Part shown: positions 10,226 through 39,385 of the stretch, piece after piece
Numbering within the stretch: position 1 is the stretch's first letter
Layout: each line of letters starts with the position of its first letter
NCBI GenBank assembly: GCA_000004695.1
Contig: CM000150.2
Coordinates: 1,984,001-2,048,000, forward strand
Direction of reading: 5' to 3'
DNA: 64,000 nucleotides
Source: Dictyostelium discoideum
Lineage: Eukaryota
Notes under the pieces: generated by a model
What the model was told of the DNA's origin: nothing
The model's database searches: none
The model's input: only the letters and a program-made list of their open reading frames with translations
Translations under genes and position numbers: made by a program

Positions 10226-10284
<59 letters not shown>

Positions 10285-10315
10285 CTTTATTCGATTACAT
10301 AGAAATTGATTAACA

Positions 10316-10923: not shown

Positions 10924-11164
10924 GTTAAACTAAATTATTTTTATAGTTTTTTTTTTTTTTTTTTTTTTTAATTTTTTATTTTCCTTTTTTCTTTTTTAGA
11001 ATAATATTAAACATTTTATTTTACTTTCAAGTATTTTGGAAAAAAAAGAAAAAAAAGAAAAAAAAGAAAAGGAGAAAAAAAGAAAAAAAAAAGAAAAAAA
11101 ACATATTTATAATTTGGTTATTTAACCATTTAGAGGAATATTGTGAAGAATCAATGATTAGTTT

Positions 11165-11235
11165 TTAAAACTGTAATGATTTGTTAAATTAAAACCATTT
11201 TATTGGCAATTTAACATTGAATAGATCATTTTCAT
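11165..11235 (+). promoter_or_regulatory. Candidate SECIS element (form 1) in the selK 3'UTR.
   Basis: A 5' AUGAU quartet lies at 11176-11180. Helix 2 is UUGUUAAAUU (11181-11190) paired with AAUUUAACA (11208-11216). The apical loop begins with AAAA (11191-11194), 12 nt after the quartet A. The 3' quartet UGAA is at 11218-11221, giving tandem sheared G.A/A.G pairs and a U.U pair. The lower helix is weaker. Confidence 0.5.
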
Positions 11236-11559
11236 CAGTAACCAATATTCTTTAAAAAAAAAAAAAAAAACAAGATCAAAATAAAAACAAAATTGTATAT
11301 AGTAATATCATAATAATAATAATAAATTTTTAAATTCCTACTTTGCATCATAATTTTCTTTATTTTTATTTTAAATATTAACTTAAATATTGGATTTTTT
11401 TTAGTTATAATCGTTTTAAAAATGGGTAATTATTCAATATCCTTCCAATTTAATAAATTGCCCAATTCAATAGAATCGATAAAGACAATTATTGATTTCT
11501 ATTTTAAATTTTTTTCATAATTTTAGTTTTTTTCAATTTAAAAATTCATTTTCAAAAAT

Positions 11560-11631
11560 GGCTCCTTAGCATAGTGGTATTGCGCTTCCCTAGTAAGGAA
11601 GAGGTCATGAGTTCGATCCTCATAGGAGCCT
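11560..11631 (+). tRNA. tRNA-Thr (anticodon AGU), copy 1.
   Basis: Cloverleaf read by hand. The acceptor GGCTCCT/AGGAGCC is perfect. The anticodon stem CTTCC/GGAAG has loop CTAGTAA (U33, anticodon AGT, A37). The T arm is ATGAG-TTCGATC-CTCAT. A T7 run (pol III terminator) follows. Identical to the copy at 13247. Confidence 0.85.
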
Positions 11632-11639
11632 TTTTTTGA

Positions 11640-11727
11640 ATAATCTTACAAAACCTAGGGATTTATTTTATTAATTACCTAATCTAAACATACCATCAAT
11701 ACATGGATAATCAATCTTGTTAATCCA

Positions 11728-11797
<70 letters not shown>

Positions 11798-12460
11798 AAA
11801 TTGAGGAAATCAATAACATGACCAGATGGTTCTTATTCTCCTCAGTTAAGAATACATATACAGAAGAGAGAAAATACAAAACTATGATGAAAATAGACAG
11901 AGCATATGCAGATTGGAAAGAAGGAGGCATAAAATTATGGGATATAGAACTAAGACATATAGCATTCAAAATCTGGTACATGAACAGGCTACTCCATAAC
12001 AACTACAACAACAACAACAATACCTTACAAGAATGGTACATGGAGCAATTAAGTAGAAAAAAAGCCCACACTTCAACCCTCAACGATATGTGCAGACACT
12101 GGGGTGTATTCAGAGTCAAATTTTACCAAAACCATCCAAAGATAAATGAACTTCCAGACTGTATAAGAAACGACAATGACGAACCACTAAAACTGAAAGA
12201 AATTTACGAACTCATGATCAAAGACAGACACCCAACACCAAGAAGAACACTGATGAAAGCAAATCAGAGCCAAAGTTCGAACAAAAGGTCATAGAAACAG
12301 AATTACTAAATCTCATCGAAACTGAAAAATTCATCACACTAAAGAAAATCAAACACGACGAAGCAATACTAAAAAACACCAATCAAGATCTTCACAAATA
12401 CAAATTCAACAAAGCCTGGCAAACCCCAGCAGCTCCGAACCCCCTTCCAATTTAAGTAGT

Positions 12461-12546
<86 letters not shown>

Positions 12547-12660
12547 GTTTAAAAAATTTAATACAAATTGAATAATAAAAATAAAACCGTTTAACAAACA
12601 CCGCCGAAAAGACACAAGGACATTCCTTGAAGGTCTGATCACAGGTAAAAAAAAAAAAAA
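11640..12660 (+). mobile_element. Stack of 5'-truncated non-LTR retroelement fragments downstream of tRNA-Thr copy 1 (TRE3-type context). A 3'-terminal module (11665-11736) is followed by a 57-nt A tract, then a segment with a 158-aa ORF (11818..12294) and a 73-nt A tract, then a further fragment (12540-12660) with an A20 tract.
   Basis: The motif attaattacctaatctaaa(c/a)ataccat occurs at 11665, 12667 and at the 3' end of the large element (17395). Long oligo(A) tracts lie at 11737-11793 and 12465-12537. In Dictyostelium, TRE3 elements insert 3' of tRNA genes (established knowledge). Confidence 0.5.
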
Positions 12661-13246
12661 AAAAAACCTAATCTAAAATAACAAATCAAAATCAGTACTA
12701 CCAAATATTATTTCATTCGATCAATTCATCTAATCAATAATATATTATACCTTTGATTTATATATTGAATATATAAATCTCAAATAAATATCTACTCTTC
12801 ATTTCAAAAAAAAATCAATTAAAAATTCATAAATAAACCTATTATTTCTGTTTATTTCCTATAACCAAAAAACAGTGATTGATCATTATAAAAAAAAAAA
12901 AAATAAAAAAAAAATTTATATGTTCAATAATTAATAAAAAATTAATTATTTCCAAAAATAGTATATTATTTTAAATATTCTCCATTTCATATAGAAAAAA
13001 ATAATTATTAAATTAAATTAAATTATTAAATTATTGAAGATTTATAAATTTAATATAGTTATTCAATAAATATGACATATTTGAAATGTTTTTTTTTATT
13101 TGAGTTTTGTCTACAATTTCTCATGGAGCCAACAAGAAATGAAAAATGAAATAATCAAAAAAAGAGATTGTTGTTTGTTGTTTTTTTTGATTTGAAAAAA
13201 ATATATTTAGTTTTTTTTCTATTATTGATTTTTTTTTTTCAAAAAT

Positions 13247-13318
13247 GGCTCCTTAGCATAGTGGTATTGCGCTTCCCTAGTAAGGAAGAGGTCATGAGTT
13301 CGATCCTCATAGGAGCCT
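13247..13318 (+). tRNA. tRNA-Thr (anticodon AGU), copy 2, identical to copy 1.
   Basis: The 72-nt sequence is the same as at 11560-11631, including 10 bp of 5' flank (ttttcaaaaatg). A T7 terminator follows. Confidence 0.85.
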
Positions 13319-13329
13319 TTTTTTGGTTT

Positions 13330-16300
13330 TGGAGAACCATACAAAACCAAATTCAAAAATGAAACAAAAAAAACCTTAACAAAACAAAGAAATAAACGAG
13401 AATTTATACATATAATAAATAAATCACTGTTATATCTTCACCGCCACATTCATTCCTCTTAATTTTACCCTATTTTTGCTCAATAAAGCAAGGGCTATCG
13501 TCCTATATACTTTTCAACAATGGCTGATGATCACTCAACTGAATTACAGTTAAATCATACAGATAACAACACAACCAATACAAATAATACCTCCACAACC
13601 TCAACAACAAAAAACAAAAGTGCAAAAATCGACACACCTAAAAAACAAACCCCAACAAACCAATTCTCACTTAACAAAGGACTTGATAAAGTGTTACTTT
13701 AATCAACCATACATCCGTGAAGAATTAACCTCTAAAGATGACACAAGAATTCAACAAATTCACAAAAACATTCACAAACTCTTCGAAGATATACTGTCGC
13801 CATCAGCATTAAAAATAATTGGTGCAACTGCCTTCGTAAATTGCAACGTTGATAAATTAACTTCAATAATCAACCTTCAAAACCAACTTGAACTAAATAT
13901 CGACAAACTCAACTATAGATTCGAAATATCATCAAATGATTATGCAATCATTAAAACATTCATTCAAACGTACTCACCCAAACATGAAAACGATGCAATT
14001 ATAAACAACCTCACCAAATTCACCAGTTGTACATCAATTGAATCATTTACTGTCACATACTCATATGCTGTTGCGTTTAAAAGCTACATTATAACATCAT
14101 CTAATTGATCACACACAACATTGTTGATCAAAAGATCCAACAACCATCTGGTATCACAAGATATATCAAAGCTGCAACACGTAGTGTCACTTAACACAAA
14201 ATTCAACATGCAAAAAATGCAGATATGGCAACAACTATAAAAAATGCTCTCACAACCCAAATATTAACAAAAACAATCAACCACCAAAAAACAACATTAA
14301 CACCCCACCAATCAACGAAATTGCAAATTCCAATCGCAATAATAACCCACTTCAAAATAGTGGTTCAAAAGCTACACTAAATGAACCACTTGAAACCAAC
14401 AATCAATCCCAAAACAATAATGAAATTTCACACAAAAGTGATTCTTCAAATAATAATAACGGGAAAAACTCATTATCAATGAGCAATCCAACCGATCCAA
14501 CAATTGTACCACAAAAACCTCTACAATCCCAACCAAACAAACCAAGTGCACCAACTCCAAATACAATAAATACAAGAAGAAGCAGCAATGCCTTGACTAC
14601 ACAACCAGTCAATACTGGTGCAGCCAAACCTAAACACACTCAACAATTGATGGTAGAGCTATTTTAGCAGACATTATATTTCCAAATCAATTACCAATTG
14701 GTATTCTTGGAATTTACGCACCAGCATCAAATAATACCATCAAAAAGAATTCATATGCAACTTCACTACAAACACTTCTCCACAACCACTCAACAAACCC
14801 AATACCAAACCAATCCCAACATGTATCTATTATCGCAGGAGATTTCAACTGTATCCACAACGACAATTCACTATTAGATGATATTATCCAATCCTACACA
14901 TACCAACACCATCTAATTGATCAAGGTGAATTTAAAAACCTCATACACATGGCAACAGATTAGATAGAATATATACTCAATACAATAGAATAGACCCTGT
15001 ATTCAGCGATGCATTGTTCTTCAAGATGTTTGAATTTTGCTGCTTTTTCTAATAGTATTTGTTTTGCAAGTTGAGTTTGTTTGTCTTTGTTATATTGATA
15101 GTTTTTTAGAGTTTTAATAATTTTTGATTTTACTTTTGACCAATTTGTAAATTGATTGATTGATGTGTTATTGTGATTATTTATTAAATGATTGATAATA
15201 TTGATCGCTTCATGGTCATTTGCAGTACCAGGTGATAATATCCATCTTTTCTTATGTTTATTTATTTGAAAAGGTGAAGAAATTGTTGTTGATATTGGAT
15301 TATGATCTGATAATGAAGATGGAATTTGATGGACTTGTGTATATATGTAACAAAAACAAATTACATCAAAACCACACAAACATATTAAAAAAACATATAA
15401 ATGGAGAAATACCTAGCAAGTATCTATCAGCAATACTAAACAAAAGATCAAAAGATGCAAAAATTGAATCAGTCCAATATGATAACATCATTACATCCGA
15501 TCCCGACCAAATTGAAAATGCGTTTGTTGAATTCTACACAAATCTATATAGCTTACAAATATGTTGTCCAATTACTCACCAGCTCATGCTAAACACATGG
15601 CCCATCATAAAAAAGAATATTGGATGGTTTAGACTCACCATTTATACAAGATGAAGTTGAAGCTGCAATTAAAGACCAAGTTAAACCCATTCTCACTACA
15701 TTATTCAACGATATACTAGAAAATCCTCACCACATCACAACAGAATTCACCGAAGGTCTTATACACACAATATACTAGAAAGGCAACCCCTTACTCATAT
15801 CAAATCGTCGTCCCATTACACTTCTAAACACTGATTACAAAATCCTCTCAAAAGTAATCAATGCACGTCTTCTGAGAATACTTCCTTTCATCATCAACAA
15901 CAACCAAACTGGTTTCGTACCCCACTGACTCATCATAGACAACATCATCAACATCAATGAATTAATCAACTACCTCTAATCTAAAAACCTCCCTGGTATC
16001 ATCACACTATTTGACTTCTTTAAAGCATTTGATTCTATCTCTCACGATAGTATTAAAAGAACATTAATTCATATTGGTATACCAATAAAATTAATAAATT
16101 TAATCCACAAGCTATTATCTGACTCATTAGCAAAAATTTCAATTAATGGTAAAACGACCAGAAAATTCGATATTATAAGAGGTGTAAAACAAGGTGACCC
16201 AATCTCAGCCACTTTATTTGTAATTGTAATTGAAATATTAGCAAGAACAATAAATGCAGACAATACAATAATTGGATTACCAATTTCACCCAATCCACAA

Positions 16301-17611
16301 ATTAAAATCAAATTTACCCAATTTGCAGACGACTCTACAACATACAACATCAACTACGAACAACAACAATCAATCAAACATTTCGATAATTTCTTCAACA
16401 TCATCATTAAATTTTGACAAAAGTGCAATAATAGAAATCGACCCCCACAAAATCACTGATAAACACATAATAAACAACATTCCATAATCAAAAAGAATAC
16501 CAATAACCAAAAAAGATCAATCAGAAAGAGTCCTTGGCTATTTCTTTAATCATAATGGTTTACATAGGAAATTACCAGAAACAATGAAAACACTGATCAA
16601 ATCATTAGTACTATGGTAAAACTAGTGGCACAACATTAAAAACAAAAACAACCATCATAAACACCTACTCACTATCACCAATAACATATTTATCATACCT
16701 TGAAGAATTTACAAAAGATGAAGAAATTCAAATTAATAAATTAATCTCATGGTTTATGAATTCTCCCGCAAATTCTGAATCACCAACTCTCAATACCAAT
16801 TCCATTGAAAACAACACATCAACCACGACAAATTAAAATATTTTATATATAAAAATTGCAATGGAAACAAAAACTGGTCACTAACAAAAAACCAAACAAC
16901 AAAATTAAACACACTCATTTATAAACCACAAACAAACAACAAAGCATTTAAACCAGATCCAACAATCAATATTAATTTTAATTTGCAGAAAACGCACAAT
17001 ATAAAATATACAGGTTCAACTGGAATTATATAAAAACAAATCTTGATCTAGTCAGAACACATGCATATTGGAACATAATCTCATTAGTTATTCACCAAAT
17101 ATGGATATGGTTATGCAAATCATTATTTGACATCAATATAACTCAATCAATTGACAATTGGAACAACCAAATAAACAACACAACACTAGATTATGATATA
17201 TTAAAATCAAAATGGCACAAGCTAATAAGATTGGAATATTCAAGAACATTATCAAACTTTAACCAATACTCAATTAAAAACAACCTCACAAAAACTCAAA
17301 AAGAAACCCAATGGTCCGAAACCATCAAAAAATTTAAAAAAGAATAGAGCATAAACACAAATGAACCAATTCCAACAATTACACCACCAATTAATTATTA
17401 ATTACCTAATCTAAAATAACATACCATATTAAATTCACAAAAACTAAAAAACCTAAAATAAATAAATAAAAATAACATACTAATTGTATACTACAATAGT
17501 TTATTTATATCAAAAAAAAAAAAAAAAAAAAAAAATTCAAAAAAGTAAAAAAAAACCGAAACAAAGAAATAGTTTATTTTATATCAAAAAAAAAAAAAAA
17601 AAAAAACAATC
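13330..17611 (+). mobile_element. TRE3-like non-LTR (LINE-type) retrotransposon, near full length but with frameshifts and stops. ORF1 is about 13520..14105. ORF2 with APE endonuclease and reverse transcriptase is about 14480..17345. It ends in oligo(A) tracts (17511-17535, 17590-17611).
   Basis: An endonuclease motif HVSIIAGDFNCIHN is present. RT motifs are present: NRRPITLLNTDYKILSKVINARL, ALFDFFKAFDSISHDSI, GVKQGDPISATLFVIVIE and the FADD variant of YXDD. The element starts within about 100 bp 3' of tRNA-Thr copy 2, in the same orientation. Its 3' end carries the attaattacctaatctaaa module followed by oligo(A). Confidence 0.7.
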
Positions 17612-19299: not shown

Positions 19300-20454
19300 A
19301 AGGGGAGGCATAAATGAGAAGATTGACATCTGCTTTCTATGATCCTCCAGCTTACCCCCATCCTCATACTGGATATCCCATGGGTTTGTTTGCCGGCAAG
19401 AGATAAAGATCAAATTTGTCAAGCACCCGGTATTTATATTTATTTCTCAAATACTCCACGACCTTATCCACCACGATTGGTTTCTCACCCAGTTACACAA
19501 CCTGTTTATTCGATTGGAAAATCAATTAATGATATTAGAAGTAGGGTTAAGGTCCATAGTGAAGATGATTTCCCCCATTTGATTAACACCCTAATGGTTT
19601 GCTAATGAGGTTCCCATGTAATAATGAACGTTCTGATAGTAGACCAAGTTTTTCTGAAGTAGCGTTATTAACAATGTTTGCAACCATTAAAAACTACATT
19701 TTAGGTGTCAAAGATAGTGATATTATAGTTTTTGATGACAATGGAGAACCATTTGATATTTTAAGAACGTTTTATGGAGTTAATAATAATAATCCATTTC
19801 GTACTTCTATTCCTCTCATCCAAGCTAATGGAACTGCTAAATTTGGATTCGATCATATGGTTGATTCCACACTTTAACCATTAGCTCCTCCTTCCATAGA
19901 TGTTATCAATGACACTAAATCAATTTTCCCAATAGGTATTCTATATGAATGTGGAAAACTACTTGATGGAGATTATAGTAATTTTGGTCAAGAAGAATCT
20001 GCCAATGGGGTATGTAACCCATGCAATAGAAAAAAAGAAAGTGAAGAGAAAAAATCAAATCCAATCAAATTCAAAAATCCACCATTATCTTACCGTTTAG
20101 AAATTAGCAATAAGTTTAGTAATTTGGAATATCAAAATGCCAAAGAAAATGGTCTTCTAGGAAAAAGTCTAGTTGAAACAGAAAAGCCATCAAAGCCATC
20201 AAAAGTTGGTCTTTTCACTAGGTTTGGCCGTTGGTAAAGGTCTTTTTGTTCCAGAGAAAAAAAGTAATTCGCTTCCTGGCAAATTCAAAGATAGTAATAT
20301 TGAAATGGTAGAGGTAAATCCTGGAGAGGAACAAATAAGTGAAGCGGCGGGCGTTGAGCATAGTCAAATTAGATATAGAGGCACAAATTACTTTTTTGAA
20401 CTTGGAGAAGCTGCTGAAGAGGCTGCTATGATTATCATATCATATCTTTTTTAA
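19300..20454 (+). pseudogene. Family B locus (B1): several adjacent ORFs in different frames (19339-19605, 19599-19877, 20173-20454).
   Basis: The segment GYP(M/W)...GIYIYFSNTP is shared with the fragment at 31222-31446 (GYPWVC...KHPGIYLIFVNSP). The frame changes around 19380. GC content is locally above the window average. Confidence 0.3.
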
Positions 20455-21130
20455 TTTCTTGCACCTCTTTTACGTGCAAAGTTACCAGGTTTGGGTATAT
20501 ATCATTGAGTTTCTTGTGCAGTTGCATAAGTTCTAATTGGCTCTTGTCTTTCTCTGTTTCTTTGCAATCGTCTTCTTTCACTTTCTTCTTGCATCAACCT
20601 TCTTCTTTCTTCTTGTCCGGCCAATCTTTGTTGTGTTTTTTTAATTTTTTTTAATTTTACCTTTTCAAGATCTGCTTCAATTTCTTTTTTTTGACGGGCA
20701 CCCATCGTTTTTTTTTAAAAAATAAACCTAATGATTTATACTTGGTTATATTTAATAGTTGAGAATTTTTATTTTATGACATTGGTTTTGAATTATTTTT
20801 AAAAAAATCATTTTAAATTTTCTTTGATTCATTACATTTTTATTTCTATCTAATGATTTTATATTAATGATCAATAGAAAATCCAATAGCCACATAGGAA
20901 TTCTATAGAAAATCACTGGGAAATTTTGGTTTGATTACCTTTATAATGGTTATTTTCTAAAGATTTTCTATAGAAAACCATTGGGTAAACAGTTGTTTCT
21001 ATAGGAAATCTTTAGAAAACAATCATTGGAAATCGTTGAATTTTTCCTTTTCTCAATTTTTTAATAGTTTTCTAATGGGTCACATCTATACCGTTATCTA
21101 TTGAAAACCATTCCAACAAAAAAATCTAAT
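20447..21130. repeat. Left arm of a large inverted duplication. The right arm is 24430-25053; arms are ~90% identical and each is about 650 bp.
   Basis: The reverse complement of 24430-25053 matches 20447-21130. This includes the small basic-protein gene and 4-5 internal copies of the motif tctatagaaaa(c/t)ca(t/c)tgg. Confidence 0.75.
20502..20705 (-). CDS. Small basic Arg/Glu-rich protein, arm copy 1 (67 aa), truncated by a premature stop relative to copy 2.
   Basis: MGARQKKEIEADLEKVKLKKIKKTQQRLAGQEERRRLMQEESERRRLQRNRERQEPIRTYATAQETQ then TGA. The paralog at 24794 continues ...AQRYIPKPGNFARKRGARN. The homologous codon here is TGA where the other copy has AGA. Confidence 0.5.
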   Translation of the reverse strand: MGARQKKEIEADLEKVKLKKIKKTQQRLAGQEERRRLMQEESERRRLQRNRERQEPIRTYATAQETQ

Positions 21131-24261: not shown

Positions 24262-24793
24262 TTTTCTCATTTTTTTAAAAAAAAAAAAACAAAAAAAAAA
24301 AAAATCATACAATGATTTCCCTTTATGAAATCAATAAAAAATTCTTTAAATAAAATTTTTAATCTTATTTTAAAAAAATTCTTTTAATGAAATCCATTAT
24401 TTTCATTTTTTATAATTTTATTGAACTTTATTGAAAATAATTAGATATTGTTATTTCCAATGGTTTTAGATTGATAACGGTATAGATGTGACCATTACAT
24501 AGAAAACTATTAAAAATTGAGCCAAAGAAAAATCAACGATTTTTAATGGTTGTTCAAAGATTTCCTATAGAAACCATTATTTACCCTATGATTCTCTATA
24601 GAATTCCTAGCTAATGGATTTTCCAATGACCATTAATATAAAATCATTAGAAAGAAACAAAAATGTAACGAATCAAAGAAAATTTAAAATGATTTTTTTA
24701 AAAATAATTCAAAACCAATGTCATAAAATAAAAATTCTCAATTATTAAATATAAACATGTATAAATCATTAGGTTTATTTTTAAAAAAAAACG

Positions 24794-25048
24794 ATGGGTC
24801 CCCGACAAAAAAAAGAAATTGAAGCAGATCCTGAAACGGTCAAATTAATTAAAATTAAAAAAGCACAACAAAGAATGGCTGAACAAGAAGAAAGAAGAAG
24901 GTTGATGCAAGAAGAAAGTGAAAGAAGACGATTGCAAAGAAACAGAGAAAGACAAGAGCCAATTAGAACTTATGCAACTGCACAAGAAGCTCAAAGATAT
25001 ATACCCAAACCTGGTAACTTTGCACGTAAAAGAGGTGCAAGAAATTAA
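24794..25048 (+). CDS. Small basic Arg/Glu-rich protein, arm copy 2 (84 aa, apparently intact).
   Basis: MGPRQKKEIEADPETVKLIKIKKAQQRMAEQEERRRLMQEESERRRLQRNRERQEPIRTYATAQEAQRYIPKPGNFARKRGARN. Inverted paralog of 20502-20705. Confidence 0.5.
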   Translation: MGPRQKKEIEADPETVKLIKIKKAQQRMAEQEERRRLMQEESERRRLQRNRERQEPIRTYATAQEAQRYIPKPGNFARKRGARN

Positions 25049-25230
25049 AAAAAGAAAAAAATAAAAATAATTAAAAGAAATAAAAAAAAAAAAAAAAATT
25101 AAAAATTAAAAATTTAAAAAAAAAAAAATAAACTAGATCTCTTATATAAGAGTTATAAAAAAAAAAATAAAAGTAAAATAAAATAAAAAAATTTAAAACA
25201 GTTCTTTTTATTTAATTAACACTTTTTTTT

Positions 25231-25689
25231 CTATTCATCTTCTTCAGAATCAGGTAGGTTTTTTGCATCAAAATCACATTGTACACCAGGTGGCAATTCA
25301 CATAATCTAACAGGCTTTCCATCTTTAATACCAACTTTCATTGCTTTTATGACCATTCTAGCATATTCATCTTGGGGAGAGATAGGGGGTGGAGTACTGA
25401 AAAATTCTCGATACATCCAAATATCACATCCTCGAGGATTTTTTCCCAAGTTATATTCAAAAATTCTGCTGTCACTGTAATATTTGTTTATAGTCTCAAT
25501 ATAACGTTCGAATGTTATTCTATAAATCTCCTTCATTTTTTCTTTACATTCCTCTGTGCAGTAACCAGGCTGAATCTTTGGAAACTCATCTTGATCTAGT
25601 AATTCATCAAGGTAAAGAGTGAAATCTTCACTTTTTTTAAGCTTTCTTAAAGAAAATTCATCATGTTGGCAACAATATTTACTTGTCAT
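25231..25689 (-). CDS. Family A protein, intact copy (A1, 152 aa).
   Basis: MTSKYCCQHDEFSLRKLKK...DEFPKIQPGYCTEECKEKMKEIYRITFERYIETINKYY...DGKPVRLCELPPGVQCDFDAKNLPDSEEDE. Paralogs or fragments lie at 18380-18830, 25983-26195 + 30800-31056 and 35079-35411. No recognisable upstream exon. Confidence 0.55.
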   Translation of the reverse strand: MTSKYCCQHDEFSLRKLKKSEDFTLYLDELLDQDEFPKIQPGYCTEECKEKMKEIYRITFERYIETINKYYSDSRIFEYNLGKNPRGCDIWMYREFFSTPPPISPQDEYARMVIKAMKVGIKDGKPVRLCELPPGVQCDFDAKNLPDSEEDE

Positions 25690-25982: not shown

Positions 25983-26195
25983 TCACTCTTCTTCTTTTGA
26001 TTCACTTTCTCCTTCTGAATCGGTTAGACCAGTTGTTTCAATTTCTACATCTACACCCCTTGGCACGTCACATAATCTAACTAGTTTACCATTAAGTATT
26101 CCCGCTTTCATAGTTTTTAAAATACTATCACGGTACTCCGGATCAATCTTCTCCTCTTCTAAACAATCATTGTATGTCTGACAGCCAACTGTCAT
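25983..26195 (-). pseudogene. C-terminal half of a family A gene (A2), separated from its N-terminal half by the E1 insertion.
   Basis: MTVGCQTYNDCLEEEKIDPEYRDSILKTMKAGILNGKLVRLCDVPRGVDVEIETTGLTDSEGESESKEEE starts exactly at the element boundary (ATGAC on the minus strand, equal to the GTCAT direct repeat). It aligns to the C-terminal half of A1. Confidence 0.6.
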
Positions 26196-26398
26196 TGTTG
26201 TAGGGAATTTTCCATAAAATTTCACTACAGTAGCGTAGTGAATTTTATTATTTAATTTCACTACAGTAGCGTAGTGAAAAAAAAAAATCACTGACCTTAA
26301 ATTTTTTTTTTTTTCAAAAAACAAATAAAGTTTATTAAATTGAAATTTTATTTTTTGTTTTAATTATTATTTTATTTATTTTTATTATAATTATTGTT

Positions 26399-26438
<40 letters not shown>

Positions 26439-26706
26439 CAATTTTTTTTTTTTAAATTTTTTTCAATTTTTATTTGTTTATTAAATTGTAATTTTATTTT
26501 TTGTTTTAATTATTATTTTATTTATTATTATTGTTAATTTTTTTTTTTTTTCAATTTTTTTTTTTTTAATTTATTTTTATTAATTTATTTTTATTAACTC
26601 CCTGAGTTGTTCAATTGCTTGATTTACCATATCACTGTAAACACTGCACACAATTGAATTTTTTCTAGCTTTGTTACCTCTGGTGCATTTGATGTTTTTG
26701 CATTTT

Positions 26707-27465
26707 CACAGCGAAGAAAAAACCACCTTTAAATTCGCTTTAAATTAAATTTAAATTTGCTTTAAAGTCCTGAATTAAAGCAATTTTAAAGGTAATTTTA
26801 AAGGTAATTTATAAGGTTACTTTAAAATCACCTTAAAAATTACCTTTAAAATTACCTTTAAAATTACCTTTTTAATGGCTTTAAAAGCGAGGTCCTGAGT
26901 TCGAAGCCGTTATTTAACGGATAAATTTTTTAAAATTTTTTTTTTAATTTTTCAAAAATTACCAAAAGGGATTCGATCCCCCGACCCTCTATCAAAGGGT
27001 AGTCTCATCAACCATTACACCATTTGATTGCTTTGATGAAAAATTTAAAAATGATAGAATATTTTATCCCCATTTTTTTTTTCTAAAATTAGATCTTTTT
27101 TATTAAAAACCTTAAATTTATGTTTAAAGGAAATTTAAATTCACTTTAAATCTACTTTAAATATACTTTAAATCCTATTTAAAATTAATTTAAAATAAAT
27201 TTTAAAGGTATTTTTAAATATCTTAAAAATTATCTTAAAAATTACCTTAAAAATTACCTTTAAAATCACCTTTAAAATCACCTTTAAAATTGCTTAAAAA
27301 TTTATTTTAAAGCAAATTTTAAAGGCATTTTTAAATATCTTAAAAATTACCTTAAAAATTACCTTAAAAATGAATTTTTTAAACGCGGCTTTAAATTCAA
27401 TTTAAATCCAATTTAAATCAACTTTTCTTTAAATTTGCTTTAAAGGTGCATTTTTCTTTGCTGTG
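26707..27465. mobile_element. Nested 759-bp MITE-like element. It has ~27-bp terminal inverted repeats (cacagcgaagaaaaaaccacctttaaa / tttaaaggtgcatttttctttgctgtg), subterminal 12-bp periodic repeats (ttaaaggtaatt / taaaaattacct) and a tRNA-like core.
   Basis: Termini and repeats were read from the sequence. The internal segments ggtcctgagttcgaagcc (about 26893) and 26968-27031 (minus strand) have tRNA-like D and T arm sequences (TGGTGTAATGGT, GGGGGATCGAATCCC) but do not fold into a complete cloverleaf by hand. Confidence 0.45.
26968..27031 (-). other. tRNA-like fragment (Ile-GAU-like anticodon arm ACCCT-TTGATAG-AGGGT). No valid acceptor stem could be found.
   Basis: Hand folding only: the anticodon stem-loop and a T-arm-like GGGGG-ATCGAAT-CCCTT segment are present. 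No matching acceptor stem was found. Confidence 0.25.
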
Positions 27466-27974
27466 TTCCTTTGTATACAAAAAAGTCCAAATATAATTCG
27501 TTTTCTATTACAGTTTTTACACAATGTTGGTGAAATTGTTTTGATTTTAATTCTAATGCTTCTAACATCATATTTGGATTTTTAACGATTAAAGCATCAC
27601 CACTATTTACATATAGTACTTTGGCTGCTTTTTCGAGGAATTTAGTCAAATTTTCCTCTGAATCTAACTATTCTTCATTGCCATATTCAATGGCTAAATT
27701 TCTTAAGAGTTTTATCGAATCTATTAATTCTTCGATCATTCTTTTTTTTTGAAATTTTTTTTTATTTTGTTTTTTCAATTTTTTTTTTTTATTTTGTTTT
27801 TTCAATTTTTTTTAAGTTTTATTTTTTTTTATTTTTTTTTATTTTTTTTAACAAATGTAATTTTTTTTTATTTTTTTCAATTTTTTTTTTTTTTAATTTT
27901 TAATTTTTTTTTTTTTTTTTAATTTTTTGTGTTGATTTGTGTTTTTTTTGTTTTTTTGATTTGGCCACTTGTTT

Positions 27975-28961
27975 TTATTTTCTAATTTCCCCATACCCCC
28001 TTCTATTAATTGCAACCAAATCAAGTTCTAATTTTTGTGTCCTTGTTAACTTTGTTTTTGCAACTTTTTTTGAAGGTATCACATTAACGATTTTTCCTAT
28101 TGATGGTGATTTGGAAGGTGATTTAAATGGTGATTTAAAAGGTGAATTGGAAGGTGATTTAAATGGTGAATTGGAAGGTGAAATGGATGGTGATTTGGAA
28201 GGTGATTTAAATGGTGATTTGGAAGGTGATTTAAATGGTGATTTAAATGGTGAATTGGAAGGTGAAATGGATGGTGATTTGAGAGGTGATTTGGATGGTT
28301 TAGAATGTGATTTTAAAGGAGGTTTATTAACAATTGGTATCTTATGAGGACGGCCTCTGAGACGTTTAACAGTTGTTACTATACCACTACCAGATTGTGG
28401 TATAGTATACGATGGTATTATTTGCACTTGAGGTATTGGTGGTACTATTTCTTTTAAATTCATATCCTTTCTCAAACAATTCATTAAATTTGGCGCTGTT
28501 GGATTATTATTTAAAAATGGGAGTATTTCTTCTTGTTCCATTTCATTATTGAGTTTGTGTTGAAATGGATTATCGTTAATGATAGGTGGAATATTTGATG
28601 GATTGTTAAGAGCATCTTCCAAAACCCTAAATGGATCATTTTGTGTTACCAATTGATGCAAGTTGAAATTGGATAAATCCTTACCAAGATTTTTAATAAA
28701 CTGAACCAGAAATTCAATAACTTTCCCATCATTATTTAAATAAAGACCAGAAGTAAAAGAATCAATATCTTTTTGTATGTTTGGCGATGTTCTAAAAATA
28801 TCAACTGTTGATTGTTTATAAAGAACCAACTTGTTACCTCCTACAAAACCAGAGTATAAACCTTTTTTTTGAAGGCTATTGATTCCATCTTCCAAAAATT
28901 CAAGTTTATAAAGTTGTTTAGTGTCTTCCTGTATTACCTTATGAATTTTACACAAAATCAA
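27975..28961 (-). CDS. AT-hook / SPKK-repeat DNA-binding-like protein (328 aa), inside E1.
   Basis: An RGRP AT-hook (KRLRGRPHKIP) is followed by about 20 repeats of (K/S)SP(S/F)K. These are encoded by a 12-nt periodic DNA repeat (ggtgatttaaat/ggtgaattggaa on the plus strand, 28090-28320). The N-terminal 200 aa are non-repetitive. Confidence 0.4.
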   Translation of the reverse strand: MILCKIHKVIQEDTKQLYKLEFLEDGINSLQKKGLYSGFVGGNKLVLYKQSTVDIFRTSPNIQKDIDSFTSGLYLNNDGKVIEFLVQFIKNLGKDLSNFNLHQLVTQNDPFRVLEDALNNPSNIPPIINDNPFQHKLNNEMEQEEILPFLNNNPTAPNLMNCLRKDMNLKEIVPPIPQVQIIPSYTIPQSGSGIVTTVKRLRGRPHKIPIVNKPPLKSHSKPSKSPLKSPSISPSNSPFKSPFKSPSKSPFKSPSKSPSISPSNSPFKSPSNSPFKSPFKSPSKSPSIGKIVNVIPSKKVAKTKLTRTQKLELDLVAINRRGYGEIRK

Positions 28962-29031
28962 TATTTTCTATTAGAATTAAATATAAAATTTGTTAATTAT
29001 TACTGTTTCATATATTATTAATCTTTATGTT

Positions 29032-30268
29032 TTAATTACTTACATTATTTTTTTTAATTTCTAGAAAGAGTACAGTATCACCAACTTTCAATCCCTTTGG
29101 TGGTTTTGAATTCCATTGATTTTGGTAACTTGTGAGATTTTCAAGAATAATAGCTGTTCTTTCTTCTTTTGAAACATCTGAAACACCAATTGATTGAGAG
29201 TCTTGTTCTGATTGAACATTAATAAACAAAGGAACAATACCAACAGCTTGAGATGGTGTCATTTTAATTGTTCTTGTTTTTGTATTATTGTAATCATACA
29301 AAGCTTGTTTTAATAGTTCAGAAAGAGACCTAGAAGTACCATCAAGAAAACTAAAATTTATTTATAAATGATTAATTAATAAACATATCGATAATTTATA
29401 TTGTTCACAATATCATACTCTTGTTGTTTTAATTTTGAGATCCTCTCCTTGATAGTTCGATTCAATCTTTCTACCATACCTTGAGTTGTTGGTGTACGAG
29501 GAGCTCCATGTGCTGACTTGGAGCCTGGAAAAAGTTTTAGGAATTCTTTTTGGACTTTGTTTTTAAATTCACGTCCATTATCGCAGTGCCATACTTTCAC
29601 AGGTTTGCCAAAGTACGTGAGAGCCAAAAAATTGTATATGGGAACTGTTCTCTTTGTTGTCAAACATCTAAAAAATAAATGATAATTAAAATAAAAAAAG
29701 AAAACTAATAAATTAATAAATAAAAAATAAATACCTTCCAGTAGCAAATTTTGTAAAAGAATCTATGCATAGAATAATGTAAACAACATCGGTGTCGTAC
29801 GGTTGTACAGAGTCATATTGGATAAGATCATCTAGTTTAGTTAGTATCTTTTCATTATCATCATCGTATGTAACTTTTTCTTTATGTTCACCTTTAATTG
29901 ATGTTAAATCATAAACCAATCTTGAGTATTCCTCGGTATCTACAATTGGAGCAAAATCCTTTGTTATACCTATTAATTTATTTAAATTATTAAAAGAGTT
30001 TTAATATAAAAGTTACAAAACATCATATAAAAATGATTGATACCAAACCTTTTATTCTATTTCGTTGGCAAATGTCACACGTATCTACTGCATCAGATAC
30101 AAAAGAATACAATCCCATATTATAATATTTAGTCTTGTAGTTCCCATAGGTTGCATCTCTTCCTATATGACCTTTATGCATTTCTTCCCAGAGTGATACC
30201 ATTCTATAATCATTAATTACTTCTAAACACACTTCTTTTGATATATTTCTATCTCCGCCACAATTCAT
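29032..30268 (-). mobile_element. Degenerate Ty3/gypsy-type LTR-retrotransposon integrase remnant (Skipper/DGLT-like), fragmented across three or four ORFs.
   Basis: An HHCC zinc-binding motif is present (HKGHIGRDATYGNYK...CDICQRNRIKG). An integrase core is present (KVWHCDNGREFKN...SAHGAPRTPTTQGMVERLNRTIKERI). A C-terminal SH3-like KVGDTVLFLEIKK is present. Stops and frameshifts lie between the pieces. Confidence 0.6.
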
Positions 30269-30487
30269 GACTTTTTTTTCAATTCTAAATAATTTTTCTT
30301 TTCTGTTTCTGTTTTTTATTGGTCAGAATTTAAAAAATGATTGTGTTATTGTAAGGAAAAATATTTACTCATCATGTAAAAATTTATAATTTTTATGTTT
30401 AGTATTTTCAAAATTATTATCTTCAATAAATTTTAAATAATTTATAATTTCATTTATTTTATCTTGTTTCATTTTGGGAAAATGAAA

Positions 30488-30522
<35 letters not shown>

Positions 30523-30799
30523 TGTTGGGGAAAAAAAAAAAAAGTTTTGGCGCAAAAAAAAAAAAAAAAATAAAATAAAAAAAAAAAAAAATAAAATAAA
30601 AAAAAAAAAAAATAAAAAAACTTATATAGAACTAATAATCAAATAAAAGATAATAATTTAATAAACTTTATTTGTTTTTTGAAAAAAAAAAAATTTAGGG
30701 TCAGTGATTTTTTTTTTTCACTACGCTACTGTAGTGAAATTAAATAATAAAATTCACTACGCTACTGTAGTGAAATTTTATTGAAAATTCCCTACAACA

Positions 30800-31056
30800 G
30801 TCATTATTGGTGGGTCTGGGAAACTTTTGAATATTTTACAATCATCATAGTAATTATTAACTGCCTTGAGATATCCTTCGAAAGTTATCCTATAAATTTC
30901 TTTCATTTTTTTTTTACATTCTTTTGTACAGAGTCTATTTATCTCAGGGAATCTATCCTGGTCAAATAATTTATCATCGTATAAAAAGGGGCCAAGTTTT
31001 TTAAGGTTTTCTATTGAAAAGCGGTCATGTCCGCATCCACCTACTTTTCTCAACAT
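30800..31056 (-). pseudogene. N-terminal half of family A gene A2. The reading frame runs into the E1 terminal repeat (...PDPPIM then TVVGNFQ, stop).
   Basis: MLRKVGGCGHDRFSIENLKKLGPFLYDDKLFDQDRFPEINRLCTKECKKKMKEIYRITFEGYLKAVNNYYDDCKIFKSFPDPPIM aligns to the A1 N-terminus. It ends at the GTCAT/ATGAC direct repeat. Confidence 0.6.
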
Positions 31057-31221
31057 AATTTGTTGTGTGAAAATAAAAAAAAAAATTAAAAAAATAAATT
31101 AAAAAATAAATTAAAAAAAAATTAAAAAAAATAAATTAAAAAAATAAAAAATAAAATTTAAGTTTTTATTCATCTATAAAAACACAAAAAATTTTGATAA
31201 TATTAATAATTATAATTAAAA

Positions 31222-31446
31222 ATGTTTAACAGACTGTTATATCTATATTTTTTATTAGCTTTATATTTTAACCATATCCATTGCCTGGAAAAATATGCGT
31301 CGAAATTTTACAGACCACCAACAGCAGTACACAGACAAACTGGTTACCCATGGGTTTGTACAAGATATTTGGATGATACTAAAGAAGTGGTACAAAAAGA
31401 ATGCAAACACCCGGGTATATATTTAATTTTTGTAAATTCACCATAG
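31222..31446 (+). pseudogene. Family B fragment (B2, 74 aa ORF).
   Basis: KFYRPPTAVHRQTGYPWVCTRYLDDTKEVVQKECKHPGIYLIFVNSP is similar to the B1 segment at 19339-19450. DNA similarity continues up to the E2 boundary. Confidence 0.35.
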
Positions 31447-31480
31447 TCTACCTCTTTGGTTAATTTGTTCCATACACCTA

Positions 31481-31696
31481 TGTTGTAGGGAATTTTTTTT
31501 GAAATTTCGCTTTCTAAACGGCAGTGAATTTTTACACTAAAATACACTGTTTATGCATGGTGTAAAAATTCACTAAATTTTTTTTTTTTTATAATTAAAT
31601 TAAAAAACAATTTATTTAATCAGAAAAATAAAAAACCAATTTTATTCAGTTATTTGCTTGTTATTTATTTTTTTATAACAAAAAAATTTAGTTTGC

Positions 31697-31754
<58 letters not shown>

Positions 31755-31837
31755 CAATTATTTTTTTCAATTTTTTTTTTTATCGATTGTTTCATTTTTG
31801 GGGAATAAAATAAAATTGTTCGATAAAAAAAAAATTG

Positions 31838-31900
<63 letters not shown>

Positions 31901-32102
31901 GGTTTATATTTTAATTATGGTATTCATTATTGTTTATATAATTATTTTTAGTATTTATATTATTTATAATTATAAACTCGAGTTAATAGAATTATTATTA
32001 TTATTATTATTATTTAAATGTGGGTCAACTATAATTAGTGTCTTAGTTCACTTATTTAATATTAACTTATTTTTGTGTCTTCGTTACATAAAAAAAAAAA
32101 TG

Positions 32103-32134
<32 letters not shown>

Positions 32135-33156
32135 AAAAAAAAAATAAAAAAAAAAAGAAAAATAAAAAAAAAAAGAAAAATAAAAAATAAAAAAAAAAAT
32201 AAAAAAAATAAAAAAAAAATAAAAAAAAAAGAGGGTACCCCCCCCTAAAAAAAATAATAATTTTAATAATAATAATAATAATAATAAAAATGAAAATTAA
32301 TATTTAAATAAAAAAAAGAGGGTACCCCCCTAAAAAATGTTGGAATTTAATTAAATTTATTTTTTATTTTTTTTATTTTTTAATTTTATTTTTTTTATTT
32401 TTTAATTTAAAAAATGTTGATATAAAACAAAAAAATTTTTTCAAAAAAAACATTTCAAATTATTTTTAACAAATTATATTATTATACTTTAATGTATGTG
32501 TACAATTTTAAAAATTTAAAATTTGTTCTATTTTTATCAATCATATCATGTATATTTATTAATTAAATCTCATATATTCTTATTCCCAGCAAATGACATC
32601 AGGTGGAATCGTACAACCAGGCCAAAATCTCTCACAACGTCCAATAAACGGCCAATATGGCTGGGGACCAGCAGCAGGAAGTGCCGCAAATCCACGTGGC
32701 GATCTCCGTGGTTACACTTACAATATTAGATAGTTTCGCTGTCTATTTCTGAATATTCAGAAATCTTTGTTTAATGCCAAAAATAGTAGATATCTATTAT
32801 ATTTTCTCATTTTATAAATCTGATAAGATCTGTCTTAAATAAAAAAAATCAAATTTTTTTATAAATTAAAAAAAATCATTTCCGCAAATCCGCAAAAAAT
32901 AGCGGGAATTAAATTATTTATTGTTTTTTAAATTGTTTTTTTTGCGTGATATGAAATGAACAGCAAATGAACAACGTGTGAGTTGTATTAGCTGATGGTA
33001 ATATTTATTTATTTTTGTTTAATTAAAAAATTTTTTATAAAATAAAAAAAAAAAAAAATTTTAGTGAATTTTTACACTACGCATAAACAGTGTATTTTAG
33101 TGTAAAAATTCACTGCCGTTTAGAAAGCGAAATTTCAAAAAAAATTCCCTACAACA
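31481..33156. mobile_element. E2: 1.7-kb element with ~97-bp terminal inverted repeats sharing the terminal 16 bp (tgttgtagggaatttt) with E1. Flanked by a 6-bp direct repeat CACCTA. The interior is non-coding.
   Basis: 31481-31577 is the reverse complement of 33061-33156 with one 3-nt difference. Each arm contains a 15-bp-stem hairpin (agtgaatttttacac...gtgtaaaaattcact). CACCTA lies at 31475-31480 and 33157-33162. The interior has poly(A/T) tracts and two GAGGGTACCCCCC boxes (32231, 32318). Confidence 0.55.
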
Positions 33157-33584
33157 CACCTATCTATGGGTGGTATGACTTTTAATATGGTTACTTCAGC
33201 ATTTTCGAAATTAATATTTGAAATCATTTGATAGTAAAACGTTAGACAATTTGAATAGGTTTGATTGTTTATGATTTTCAAAACCGATGTATCAAAGTAA
33301 ACAATATCATACTCTGACGATGACAAAGCATTACATAAATCATTAGCTTCCACAGCCAATAGGTATTTTTGTAAAGTTTCAAACTGATCATTAGCAAATG
33401 GAAACTTTGAGTACATATCCTTTAGGAGAGCATTAGCTACAGTGGAATCAGTAGGTTCACCGAAAAATCCAACCTTTTGACCAATAAGGATTTCTTTTCT
33501 TTCATATGACTCTTTAATTCTATTTAAAATTGTTGTTTTTCCAGAACCAATTGGACCTGTAGTAATTTTAATCTTAGGAGGCAT
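33135..33584 (-). CDS. P-loop NTPase, deoxynucleoside/nucleotide kinase-like ORF (149 aa). Its 3' end runs into the E2 terminal repeat, so it is likely interrupted.
   Basis: A Walker A motif ITTGPIGSGKTTILNRIKE is followed by GFFGEPTDS, resembling the dNK EGNIGSGKTT...EP pattern. The last 6 codons (VVGNFF) are encoded by the E2 TIR. Confidence 0.35.
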   Translation of the reverse strand: MPPKIKITTGPIGSGKTTILNRIKESYERKEILIGQKVGFFGEPTDSTVANALLKDMYSKFPFANDQFETLQKYLLAVEANDLCNALSSSEYDIVYFDTSVLKIINNQTYSNCLTFYYQMISNINFENAEVTILKVIPPIDRCVVGNFF

Positions 33585-33891
33585 TTTTTTTTTTCTTTTT
33601 TATTTATTTTTAGATATTATCTTGTTTTATTTTTTTTAAAAAAAAATAATAATTTATATCCATTTTTAAAAAAAACAAAAAAGCTTCCATGGTGTTCTTT
33701 TTTTTAAAAAAAGAATTCTATTAAAGAATAGTTATAAAAATAAAAAAAAAAAAAAAATAAGGGAAGAAAAAAAAAAAATCTTGGTTTTGATTTTCAAAAA
33801 AAAAAAAAAAAAAAAAAAAAAATTAAAAATTATAAAAAAAAAAAAAAAAAATATCTTCTTTTTTTTTAAAAAAAAAAAATAAAGAATAAAA

Positions 33892-34811
33892 ATGAACATT
33901 CATGTAAAATCAGTTTGTATTGATAATGGCATCATAATTTTTAAAAAACAAGATCAGGCATTTAATTATATGAATAGTGTCAGCTCTATTGAAAAATATT
34001 TTATATTTTCATATGAATTTGGCGATAAAGGTCAACGTGCTTTTTTAGTATCTCCAAGTATTGAAAAACTCTTCAAATGTATAATGAATACACCATTGAA
34101 TCTTCGTCATTATTATGAATTGATTCCACAATTTGAAAATTGTAATTTGTATTTAGATATTGATTTTAAGTTATCACCCGAGAAAGCAGAAGAAAATAAA
34201 AGAAACAAACAACTTTATAAAAACAATCTTATCGATAGAATTATAATCGACGAAGTAAAACCCATCCAAAGAAAACACATCCACAGGTCTCTGATGAAAT
34301 CGATAGCATTGAACCATTATTGCTCTTCTCCTATCAATACGATAAATATTCTTTACATTTACATTGGCCATTGAAAACCTTCCATTGGAAAGACAATGAA
34401 CATCTTGGAGAATGGGTAAAACAATTTGTTATTGAAAGATCCATCTATATACCAGAGCTCAACTATATCGATACGTCAGTTTATTCAAAATTCAGAAATT
34501 TTCGTCTAATGGGAAATAAAAAATTCAGTAAGAGTATTGAAACAATACTTAGAACAACATCTAAAGATAAAACCCTTGAAACCTTTGAAAAAACTATAAT
34601 AACATCATCGAATTTTCAAAAACAAAACGATACTGGTATCGATGAGAAAATCCTTTCATCTAATGGTTTCGAATCTTTAAAGAATACTGGTAGATCAACA
34701 GTTGATGTTAAGAGGAATCAACACCAACGAATTTCTTGTAATGATTTGATTTCATTGGAAGGTATGGGTCTCTCATTGGACGAATGTAATGATATTATAT
34801 TTTGTTTTTAA
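33892..34811 (+). pseudogene. Archaeo-eukaryotic primase (AEP) superfamily primase-like gene with one frameshift (ORFs 33892..34374 and 34320..34811 overlap).
   Basis: Motif I is hhhDhD (CNLYLDIDFK), preceded by FIFSYEFGDKGQRAFLV. Motif II is sxH (YSLHLHWP). Motif III is DTSVYSKFRNFRLMGNKKFSK. The order and spacing match p48/viral-type DxD AEP primases. The frame shifts between motifs I and II. Confidence 0.5.
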
Positions 34812-35078
34812 TTTTTATAGAAGATTTTTTCAATTAAAATTCTATAAAAATAAAAAACAAAATAAAAAAAATAAATTTTATAAAAAAAAAAAAATGTTTG
34901 AAAATATAAAATCATTAATCTTCTCAGCAGTTTCTTTATTATTCTCTTTTTTGTATTATCATAGTGATTCAATTATATCTTTATTCACTCAAAATCTTGG
35001 TGAGGCAGTTTTGGAAACAATAGACGAAGTAATTCATAAACCCCAAACCTCATTACAACAAGAATCATTAAAATTACA

Positions 35079-35411
35079 ATGTACATGCAAACCATTATAA
35101 AACAATCGAAAAGTATCGATGAAGATTTGGTACAAGGAACTAAAAAATGGGAAGAAGTAAGAGAGAAGTATTCTTTTACTGGAAGTAGATTAGCTGCTGC
35201 CATTGGAATTGATCCATACACTTCACAACATGATTTATTTCATTTTTTATATACAATTGTTGGAATGTGCATTCATGATAAATATAATTTTGAAGATTTG
35301 TTCCAAAGAGTAGGCAGTGGCACATCATTTGCTGTTATCGAAGAATTCATGAGGGGTGATCTTTTTCCTGATATCAAAAATGGATGTAGTGAAGAATGTA
35401 AAAAAAAATGA
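35079..35411 (+). CDS. Family A-related ORF (A3, 110 aa) with an N-terminal YqaJ-like exonuclease motif, C-terminally truncated.
   Basis: QGTKKWEEVREKYSFTGSRLAAAIGIDPYTSQHDLFHFL fits the N-terminal motif of YqaJ/lambda-exonuclease-like nucleases (W..R...TAS..aai.G..P..s...L). It is followed by CIHDKYNFEDL...DLFPDIKNGCSEECKKK, which aligns with the family A N-terminus (CCQHDEFSL...DEFPKIQPGYCTEECKEK). Confidence 0.35.
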   Translation: MYMQTIIKQSKSIDEDLVQGTKKWEEVREKYSFTGSRLAAAIGIDPYTSQHDLFHFLYTIVGMCIHDKYNFEDLFQRVGSGTSFAVIEEFMRGDLFPDIKNGCSEECKKK

Positions 35412-39311: not shown

Positions 39312-39385
39312 GGGACTATAGTTTAGTTGGATATAACGACCGGCTACGAACCGGTAGGTCTCAGGTTCGACCCCTGATGGTCTCG
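39312..39385 (+). tRNA. tRNA-Arg (anticodon ACG).
   Basis: The acceptor GGGACTA/TGGTCTC has two G-U pairs. The anticodon stem ACCGG/CCGGT has loop CTACGAA (U33, anticodon ACG, A37). The variable loop is AGGTC. The T arm is TCAGG-TTCGACC-CCTGA. The discriminator is G. Confidence 0.75.

Follow-up and report, generated by a model that had tools for sequence, protein, structure and literature searches.

A rearranged insertion next to a Tdd-4 copy on chromosome 1 of Dictyostelium discoideum is very probably a non-autonomous derivative of Tdd-5

Two neighbouring insertions

The window, by which we mean the whole 64,000-nucleotide stretch of Dictyostelium discoideum AX4 chromosome 1 that was analysed, has a G+C content of about 22%, long A/T runs and short AT-rich introns. 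One of its reading frames, at 25231-25689 on the minus strand, is an exact protein match of DDB_G0268734 (D. discoideum AX4, chromosome 1). Two elements, E1 and E2, are separated by 680 bp, and E2 (31481-33156; approximately 1.7 kb) is the subject of this report. Each of its inverted ends begins with TGTTGTAGGGAATTTT, which occurs at exactly four sites in the 64-kb window (26196+, 30799-, 31481+ and 33156-), and these form two inverted pairs, 26196/30799 for E1 and 31481/33156 for E2. Shuffling gives an expectation of 0.26 sites per window, and four sites were reached in 0 of 100 shuffles. The first of the two elements is:

26196..30799, minus strand: E1, a Tdd-4 copy with transposase, ends and a 5-bp duplication, GTCAT

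Once five short introns are spliced out, the minus-strand gene of E1 encodes a transposase of 715 aa (P0027), which contains an H2C2 zinc finger as well as D, D and E motifs and shares 99% identity with the published TDD4 core (for TDD4 and TDD5 alike, the reference cores came from supplementary file 1 of Bao et al. 2010, PMC2836005). At 4604 bp, E1 is longer than the published 3839 bp because a 759-bp MITE is nested within it at 26707-27465. When E1 is removed in silico an ORF is restored (...FPDPPIMTVGCQTYND...), and this ORF is a paralogue of DDB_G0268734.

An independent long-read assembly of AX2 type, GCA_054883475.1, which is probably the AX2-214 genome of bioRxiv 10.1101/2025.08.01.668227, contains a locus (L001) that is 99.3-99.7% identical to window positions 15207-36000. 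The MITE nested in E1 is absent from L001; E2 is present there, with flanks as in the window.

The insertion point of E2 lies at the ends of two convergent ORFs. E2 starts about 35 bp beyond the stop of ORF 31222-31446 on the plus strand, and at its other end it occupies the last codons of a degenerate P-loop ORF, 33135-33584 on the minus strand, where the last 12 codons have been swapped for 6 codons (VVGNFF) from the E2 end. Without E2 this ORF would be predicted to end ...PPIDRCMEQINQRGRLW and then a stop, and in silico removal of E2 together with one copy of the flanking repeat yields an uninterrupted reading, ...VIPPIDRCMEQINQRGRLW and a stop. All Pfam matches of the ORF are below threshold, and its paralogues look degenerate. 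The original prediction had drawn attention to a VVGNF(F/Q) peptide tail on neighbouring ORFs, and this was borne out: ORF 33135-33584 ends in ...CVVGNFF and the minus-strand ORF 30778-31056 in ...TVVGNFQ, both encoded by element ends. The tails are a trivial consequence of insertion into or beside the ORFs.

An empty site was sought in wild isolates, at loci reached via cluster mates of DDB_G0268734 (P0005, P0006 and P0004, leading to L002, L003 and L009), and all three proved paralogous or rearranged, without synteny. We therefore infer the insertion of E2 from its structure, polymorphism being unseen. Among minor candidates, a 32-nt GT..AG stretch after ORF 31222-31446 was considered as an intron and rejected because its length is insufficient for Dictyostelium, in which introns are expected to be longer than 32 nt. 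Searches for RNA families of the Rfam type gave zero matches inside E2 and four elsewhere in 26000-33400, all with scores far under the gathering thresholds.

Anatomy of E2

Tdd-5, a DNA transposon of D. discoideum that moves by cut and paste, belongs to the Ginger2/Tdd group and has a transposase resembling retroviral integrase. Apart from one 840-bp segment, E2 can be described largely in terms of this element, as follows:

31475..31480: left target duplication CACCTA, abutting the tip and identical to 33157-33162
31481..31496, plus strand: left tip TGTTGTAGGGAATTTT, of TGTNR pattern, a tip that Tdd-4, Tdd-5 and two other Tdd lineages also have
31481..31779, plus strand: complete Tdd-5 left end, about 300 bp (long terminal inverted repeat, TIR), 92-96% match
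31501..31574, plus strand: Tdd-5-specific subterminal module, GAAATTTCGCTTTCTAAACGGC followed by the palindrome AGTGAATTTTTACAC-(22 nt)-GTGTAAAAATTCACT
31782..31825, minus strand: fold-back remnant, in which the 5' leader of Tdd-5 and the start codon of its transposase (ATGAAACAATC) are inverted
31895..32205, plus strand: Tdd-5 right subterminal non-coding region, about 310 bp
32206..33045, plus strand: 840 bp of foreign DNA that autonomous Tdd-5 copies lack
32593..32733, plus strand: 46-aa ORF, MTSGGIVQPGQ...YTYNIR, which is DDB_G0269070 (by translation; exact match to P0048)
33046..33156, minus strand: outer part, about 110 bp, of the Tdd-5 right TIR (tip, subterminal module and palindrome)
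33157..33162: right target duplication CACCTA

The inverted termini of approximately 97 bp that had been predicted for E2 are indeed present, with 95 of 97 positions identical and both mismatches in the hairpin loop. A repeat search stretches the arms to 153 nt at 87% identity, where the similarity past about 110 nt consists of A/T runs only. The proposed 15-bp-stem hairpin also folds as expected, with a AGTGAATTTTTACAC / GTGTAAAAATTCACT stem of 15-16 bp and z-scores against shuffles of -3.9 (left end) and -4.9. The 6-bp repeat, CACCTA, directly abuts both tips, and from base composition we estimate the chance of such a match for this C-rich hexamer at about 1e-4. The DNA outside the tips does not consist of inverted copies, which rules out an inverted segmental duplication of the flanks and leaves E2 as a discrete element. 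The tips, TGTTG...CAACA, fit the TGTNR...YNACA rule, as is known for Ginger/Tdd ends (PMC2836005). Taken as a TIR-bounded, non-autonomous DNA-transposon insertion with a target-site duplication, in the same superfamily as E1, the original prediction is thus supported.

Moving inward from the left tip, positions 1-299 of E2 match Tdd-5 DNA at three loci (L004 9200-9504 at 92%, L006 9689-9966 at 96% and L008 9701-9972 at 96%), and the subterminal module is identical in the ends of the autonomous Tdd-5 copies L004, L006, L007 and L008. The fold-back that follows is the reverse complement of L006 at about 9972-10010, with a T-run (31700-31755) on one side and an A-run (31836-31895) on the other. 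This inverted start codon is all of the transposase gene that we found in E2; neither a matching ORF nor an integrase-like transposase is present, so that E2 can belong to Ginger2/Tdd only as a non-autonomous element. Beyond the A-run, positions 415-725 of E2 match L007 17529-17830 at 89% and L004 16500-16781 at 90%, and at the far end the right arm matches the right ends of L004 and L007.

About 110 bp of inner right TIR sequence have given way to the 840-bp segment, in which GAGGGTACCCCCC occurs twice (at 32231 and 32318). The segment has no match in loci L002-L011 or elsewhere in the window (approximately 260 kb compared). We considered a nested transposon and rejected it, as the segment has no TIR of its own beyond low-complexity A/T matches and no other copy in the same 260 kb. 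The codon usage of its ORF, DDB_G0269070, is typical of Dictyostelium, and the identical 46-aa protein is filed under four AX4 GenBank accessions; ORFs identical to it include EAL68615, EAL70122 and EDR41073. A protein search for a parent gene returned only this identical 46-aa entry.

The foreign origin of the middle 840 bp, with its annotated host-like ORF, raises the question of whether two separate Tdd-5 insertions or fragments each left a solo end here, so that the arms bracket host DNA by chance or as a composite. We consider this hardly credible, since an identical 6-bp direct repeat abuts both tips, the arms adjoin Tdd-5 left-end and right-end DNA in the correct relative orientation, and both arms share a private substitution. 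This substitution is an A-to-G change in the hairpin loop that is absent from all autonomous copies seen, and on that comparison it is derived.

E2-type ends bound autonomous Tdd-5 elements

A protein search with the E1 transposase returned two clear D. discoideum families, the second of which (P0012, P0022, P0024 and P0025) is about 43% identical to the Tdd-4/E1 transposase. Within this second family, P0022 shares 98% identity with the published TDD5 core (AF298206). In both the TDD4- and the TDD5-type transposases Integrase_H2C2 scores above the Pfam cutoff and the rve match is weak.

All four Tdd-5 loci that were compared (L004, L006, L007 and L008) have an E2-type end, and these ends bound the elements that encode P0012, P0022, P0024 and P0025. 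Seven Tdd-5-type ends could be read at the four loci, and all seven have the E2-type terminus together with the GAAATTTCGC... segment; GAAATTTCGCTTTCTAAACGGC is likewise present in every one. The full palindrome is found on six of the seven, the right end of L006 being cut within it. In L006 (9689) and L008 (9701), E2-type ends lie about 300 bp upstream of the Tdd-5 gene start; in L004, whose copy is laden with MITEs, they form the left (9200) and right (17000) ends, and in L007 the right end of the element (18053). The L004 copy (9200-17000) contains three nested 759-bp MITEs and a nested 1742-bp Tdd-4 derivative, and once these are subtracted its length comes to about 3768 bp and its TIR to about 300 bp; the published TDD-5 has 3783 bp and a TIR of 297 bp (Bao et al., PMC2836005).

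The internal DNA of E2 matches Tdd-5 ends at 89-96%, and against Tdd-4 copies it gives A/T-run matches only. All Tdd-4-type ends have the 23-bp palindromes of E1 (TTTCACTACAGTAGCGTAGTGAA), which are absent from E2, and the short Tdd-4 derivative nested in L004 (13300-15041) has E1-type ends as well. Because E2-type ends are found on Tdd-5 loci and E1-type ends on Tdd-4, we assign E2 to Tdd-5 and not to Tdd-4. The original prediction had placed E1 and the shorter E2 in a single family mobilised by one transposase, with the two differing in size class, and this view was not supported: the E2-type end belongs to a separate autonomous element, Tdd-5, whose transposase is only 43% identical to that of Tdd-4, and it is Tdd-5 that the interior of E2 matches. 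E2 had been given the wrong partner in E1, and as a transposon it is unexceptional, belonging to a group already known. In all probability it derives from Tdd-5 by internal deletion and rearrangement and is non-autonomous. P0022, whose D, D and E motifs are intact in the AX2-type assembly, is a candidate helper transposase.

A tip common to Tdd lineages

The first 16 bp of E1 and E2 are common to both, as had been reported. The accompanying claim that they share only this outermost stretch did not hold, as positions 17-60 still align: AAATTTC and AGTGAATTTT are found in both elements at equal distance from the tip, and the alignment outscores 1993 of 2000 shuffles (equalled by 7). In three end types, AAATTTC lies at about position 22 and AGTGAATTTT at positions 42-44.

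The TGTTGTAGGGAAWTTT tip recurs in D. cf. discoideum on a third type of end (L010:1099), and likewise on the P0019 element (L011 6820-10850), whose transposase is 35% identical to that of Tdd-4, and the 16-bp terminus is common to every Tdd lineage examined. With the tip on lineages whose transposases are this far apart, it is uninformative as to which enzyme moves E2, and E1 and E2 share a terminus because the outermost 16 bp are conserved in all Tdd lineages seen, not because of one enzyme.

This bears directly on the proposal that E2 is a short member of the E1 family, moved by the E1 (Tdd-4) transposase via the common terminus. The identical terminal 16 bp, the matching distances of AAATTTC and AGTGAATTTT, and the proximity of E1, with its apparently complete 715-aa transposase, are in its favour. 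Nevertheless, we regard it as very improbable, given that both the subterminal and the internal sequence of E2 match Tdd-5 and not Tdd-4, that Tdd-5 owns a separate transposase, that a tip also present on the L011 element does not specify the enzyme, and that the true short Tdd-4 derivative has ends of the other type. As a derivative of Tdd-5, E2 might still possibly be cross-mobilised by the Tdd-4 enzyme, given the common 16 bp and AGTGAATTTT at about position 43 in both.

GTGAA/TTCAC motifs number 2-4 per 130-bp end, as compared with 0.27 per 130 bp window-wide. Read from these motifs, the hairpin modules of E1 and E2 are thus variants of one theme, in which a conserved GTGAA half-site is paired with TTCAC at differing distances. 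A Tdd-5-like end from the sister species (L010:7665) has two stem mismatches without compensation and keeps the outer AGTGAA/TTCACT half-sites. These uncompensated changes, in one diverged copy, disfavour a conserved structural hairpin and weakly favour a putative protein-binding site.

Target-site duplications

The original prediction left the target-site length uncertain between 5 and 6 bp. For the family this is now settled at 5 bp, as seven of seven other complete elements have exact 5-bp duplications, in agreement with the literature on these elements (PMC2836005):

E1 (window): GTCAT
L004 Tdd-5: CCTTT
L004 nested Tdd-4 derivative: ATATA
L005 Tdd-4: TCATC
L006 Tdd-4: CATAT
L006 Tdd-5: ATTAG
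L011 element: GCAAC

E2 alone has 6 bp and is a single-copy outlier. The 5-mers adjacent to its two tips, ACCTA and CACCT, differ, which excludes a clean 5-bp duplication. A 6-bp stagger and a 5-bp stagger with an extra junction base both predict TTCCATACACCTATCTATGG, so an empty site cannot separate them.

Discussion

How might E2 have arrived at this locus? It is reasonable to suppose that Tdd-5 transposase, supplied in trans, would bind the subterminal palindromes of AGTGAA/TTCACT half-sites and cut at the TG...CA tips, and that the tips would then be joined to staggered target nicks, normally 5 bp apart and in this case 6 bp. Repair of the stagger would produce the direct repeat that flanks E2. 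Perhaps the fold-back and the 840-bp foreign segment were acquired by template switching during repair. With only about 110 of the 300 bp of its right TIR, the present copy may be immobile.

A related question is whether the composite, as we see it, ever moved. E2 could instead be an immobile relic, a full-length Tdd-5 that decayed in situ through deletion, fold-back and partial replacement of the right TIR, such that the rearranged form never transposed. The shortened right TIR and heavily rearranged interior are what such decay would leave, the target duplication would outlast any internal decay, and no second copy of E2 was seen in approximately 200 kb of transposon-rich loci. On the other side are the nearly intact outer 97 bp of both tips, the derived A-to-G change that is found in both arms and in no autonomous copy, and the four separate AX4 accessions for the identical 46-aa ORF, which suggest that the 840-bp segment, and possibly E2, is multicopy. 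Overall, we find the relic explanation somewhat doubtful. It is also tempting to speculate that E2 belongs to a non-autonomous Tdd-5 family that has been amplified together with cargo: the 840-bp segment, with a small expressed ORF, would have been acquired and carried to no fewer than four AX4 loci by means of a right end of only about 110 bp, and with a stagger able to slip from 5 to 6 bp. We would call this conjecture improbable as it stands. If it were true, it would imply gene capture and spread by the Ginger2/Tdd group, and would set the minimal cis requirement for Ginger2/Tdd transposition.

Comparison with known systems places E2, as a derivative of Tdd-5, most closely beside Tdd-5 itself (AF298206), with which it shares the tips (including the TGTNR rule), the subterminal module, the left TIR of about 300 bp and a right subterminal region matching at 89-96%. 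It differs from Tdd-5 in lacking the transposase gene, in carrying the start-codon fold-back and the 840-bp insert with the 46-aa ORF, in its right TIR of about 110 bp, and in its duplication of 6 bp rather than the 5 bp of the family. With Tdd-4, represented here by E1, E2 has in common the superfamily, the first 16 bp, the positions of AAATTTC and AGTGAATTTT, and palindromic subterminal sites built from GTGAA/TTCAC. However, Tdd-4 ends have two or three tandem 23-bp palindromes (TTTCACTACAGTAGCGTAGTGAA) at a spacing of 36 bp, where E2 has one 15-bp-stem palindrome; in addition, the transposases are only 43% identical and the internal homology of E2 to Tdd-4 is confined to A/T runs.

More distant parallels are also informative. 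Ginger2-1N1_NV of Nematostella (PMC2836005, Table 2) is likewise a non-autonomous, transposase-dependent Ginger2 deletion derivative that keeps the TIRs of its autonomous partner, although it is a MITE of only 252 bp, present in over 50 copies that are flanked by duplications of 4 bp (PMC2836005), whereas E2 is a 1.7-kb composite with an ORF. In being bounded by TIRs, devoid of a transposase and in possession of internal, coding-like, non-transposon DNA, E2 also resembles the products of Pack-MULE-type transduplication, but these belong to another superfamily, and for the 46-aa ORF of E2 no parent gene was found in the protein search. Capture is one possible origin of the 840-bp segment.

The main implication of this work is a correction, namely that a common 16-bp tip is no evidence for a common transposase in the Tdd group. 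The TGTTGTAGGGAAWTTT tip has been conserved while the Tdd enzymes diverged to 35-45% identity, and it is the subterminal modules, as putative binding sites, that differ. In genome annotation, E2 is best masked as a repeat derived from Tdd-5, and caution is due for two gene models, DDB_G0269070, which lies within E2, and the P-loop ORF that enters the E2 end. Of modest interest for transposon biology are the lone 6-bp duplication in a 5-bp family, the possibility that a small ORF has been spread by the element as its cargo, and the junction at the start-codon fold-back, which may record a switch of template in the course of repair.

A MITE-like element nested in E1

The Tdd-4 copy E1 carries a second, smaller element:

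window 26707-27465: MITE-like element, 759 bp, TIR CACAGCGAAGAAAAAACCACCTTTAAA

This element is missing from the AX2-type assembly, which is otherwise 99.6% identical and has the empty site GCATTTTCCTTTG; laboratory lineages are therefore polymorphic for the insertion. The fetched loci contain about 15 copies that are complete. Their duplications are 2 bp long and in most cases TA, and the copies are often nested within Tdd-4 or Tdd-5. The copy in E1 has TT on either side; TTTAAAGGT-type repeats are abundant throughout it, and B-box-like pieces also occur inside it, as for instance GAGTTCGAAGCC at about 26893. It may correspond to the DDT-S of the literature.

E1 itself splits a paralogue of DDB_G0268734 (window 25983-26195 and 30800-31056). 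Removal of E1 together with one GTCAT yields an uninterrupted ORF of about 156 aa (...FPDPPIMTVGCQTYNDC...), a DDB_G0268734 paralogue.

Tdd-5 copies and related lineages

In E2, the non-autonomous Tdd-5 derivative, the hairpin loops (window 31555-31560 and 33077-33082) show four differences from the autonomous Tdd-5 consensus TATACATAG, all of them being A-to-G and one of them common to both arms. Among the other Tdd-5 loci, one holds a copy that is truncated on the right:

L006 9689-12596: Tdd-5 copy, 2.9 kb, right end reduced to 57 bp and half of the palindrome gone

The 5-bp duplication ATTAG around this copy is still perfect, and the ORF of its transposase, P0022, continues into the right end of the element to give the tail ...VKIHCRLESEISKKIPYNN.

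Within the species complex of D. discoideum, at least two more lineages of Tdd-like elements have the common tip TGTTGTAGGGAAWTTT but differ in their subterminal repeats. These and a related end in the D. cf. discoideum locus L010 are:

L011 6820-10850: Tdd-like element, transposase 35% identical to that of Tdd-4, 5-bp duplication GCAAC
L010 1099: end type of the second further lineage with the TGTTGTAGGGAAWTTT tip
L010 7665: Tdd-5-like end of the sister species

Several additional transposase lineages (P0014 and P0016-P0019) are known here as proteins only.

Surrounding sequence

The DNA to the right of E2 (window 33157-35237) is a multicopy block, most of which is present again at 95-99% identity in the paralogous loci L002 and L003, and includes:

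within window 33157-35237: degenerate P-loop ORF
window 33892-34374, continuing in 34320-34811: DDB_G0269072, PrimPol-like gene

The block may have originated from a virus or mobile element. A YqaJ-exonuclease gene lies close to its copies in L002 and L003.

Upstream of the E1/E2 region is a direct duplication of about 485 bp (window 20447-20932 and 24571-25052; 93% identical), most of which is also found in the paralogous locus L009. tRNA genes, which serve as landing sites for the TRE retrotransposons of Dictyostelium, are also present:

window 11560-11631: tRNA-Thr(AGU)
window 13247-13318: tRNA-Thr(AGU)
window 39312-39385: tRNA-Arg(ACG)
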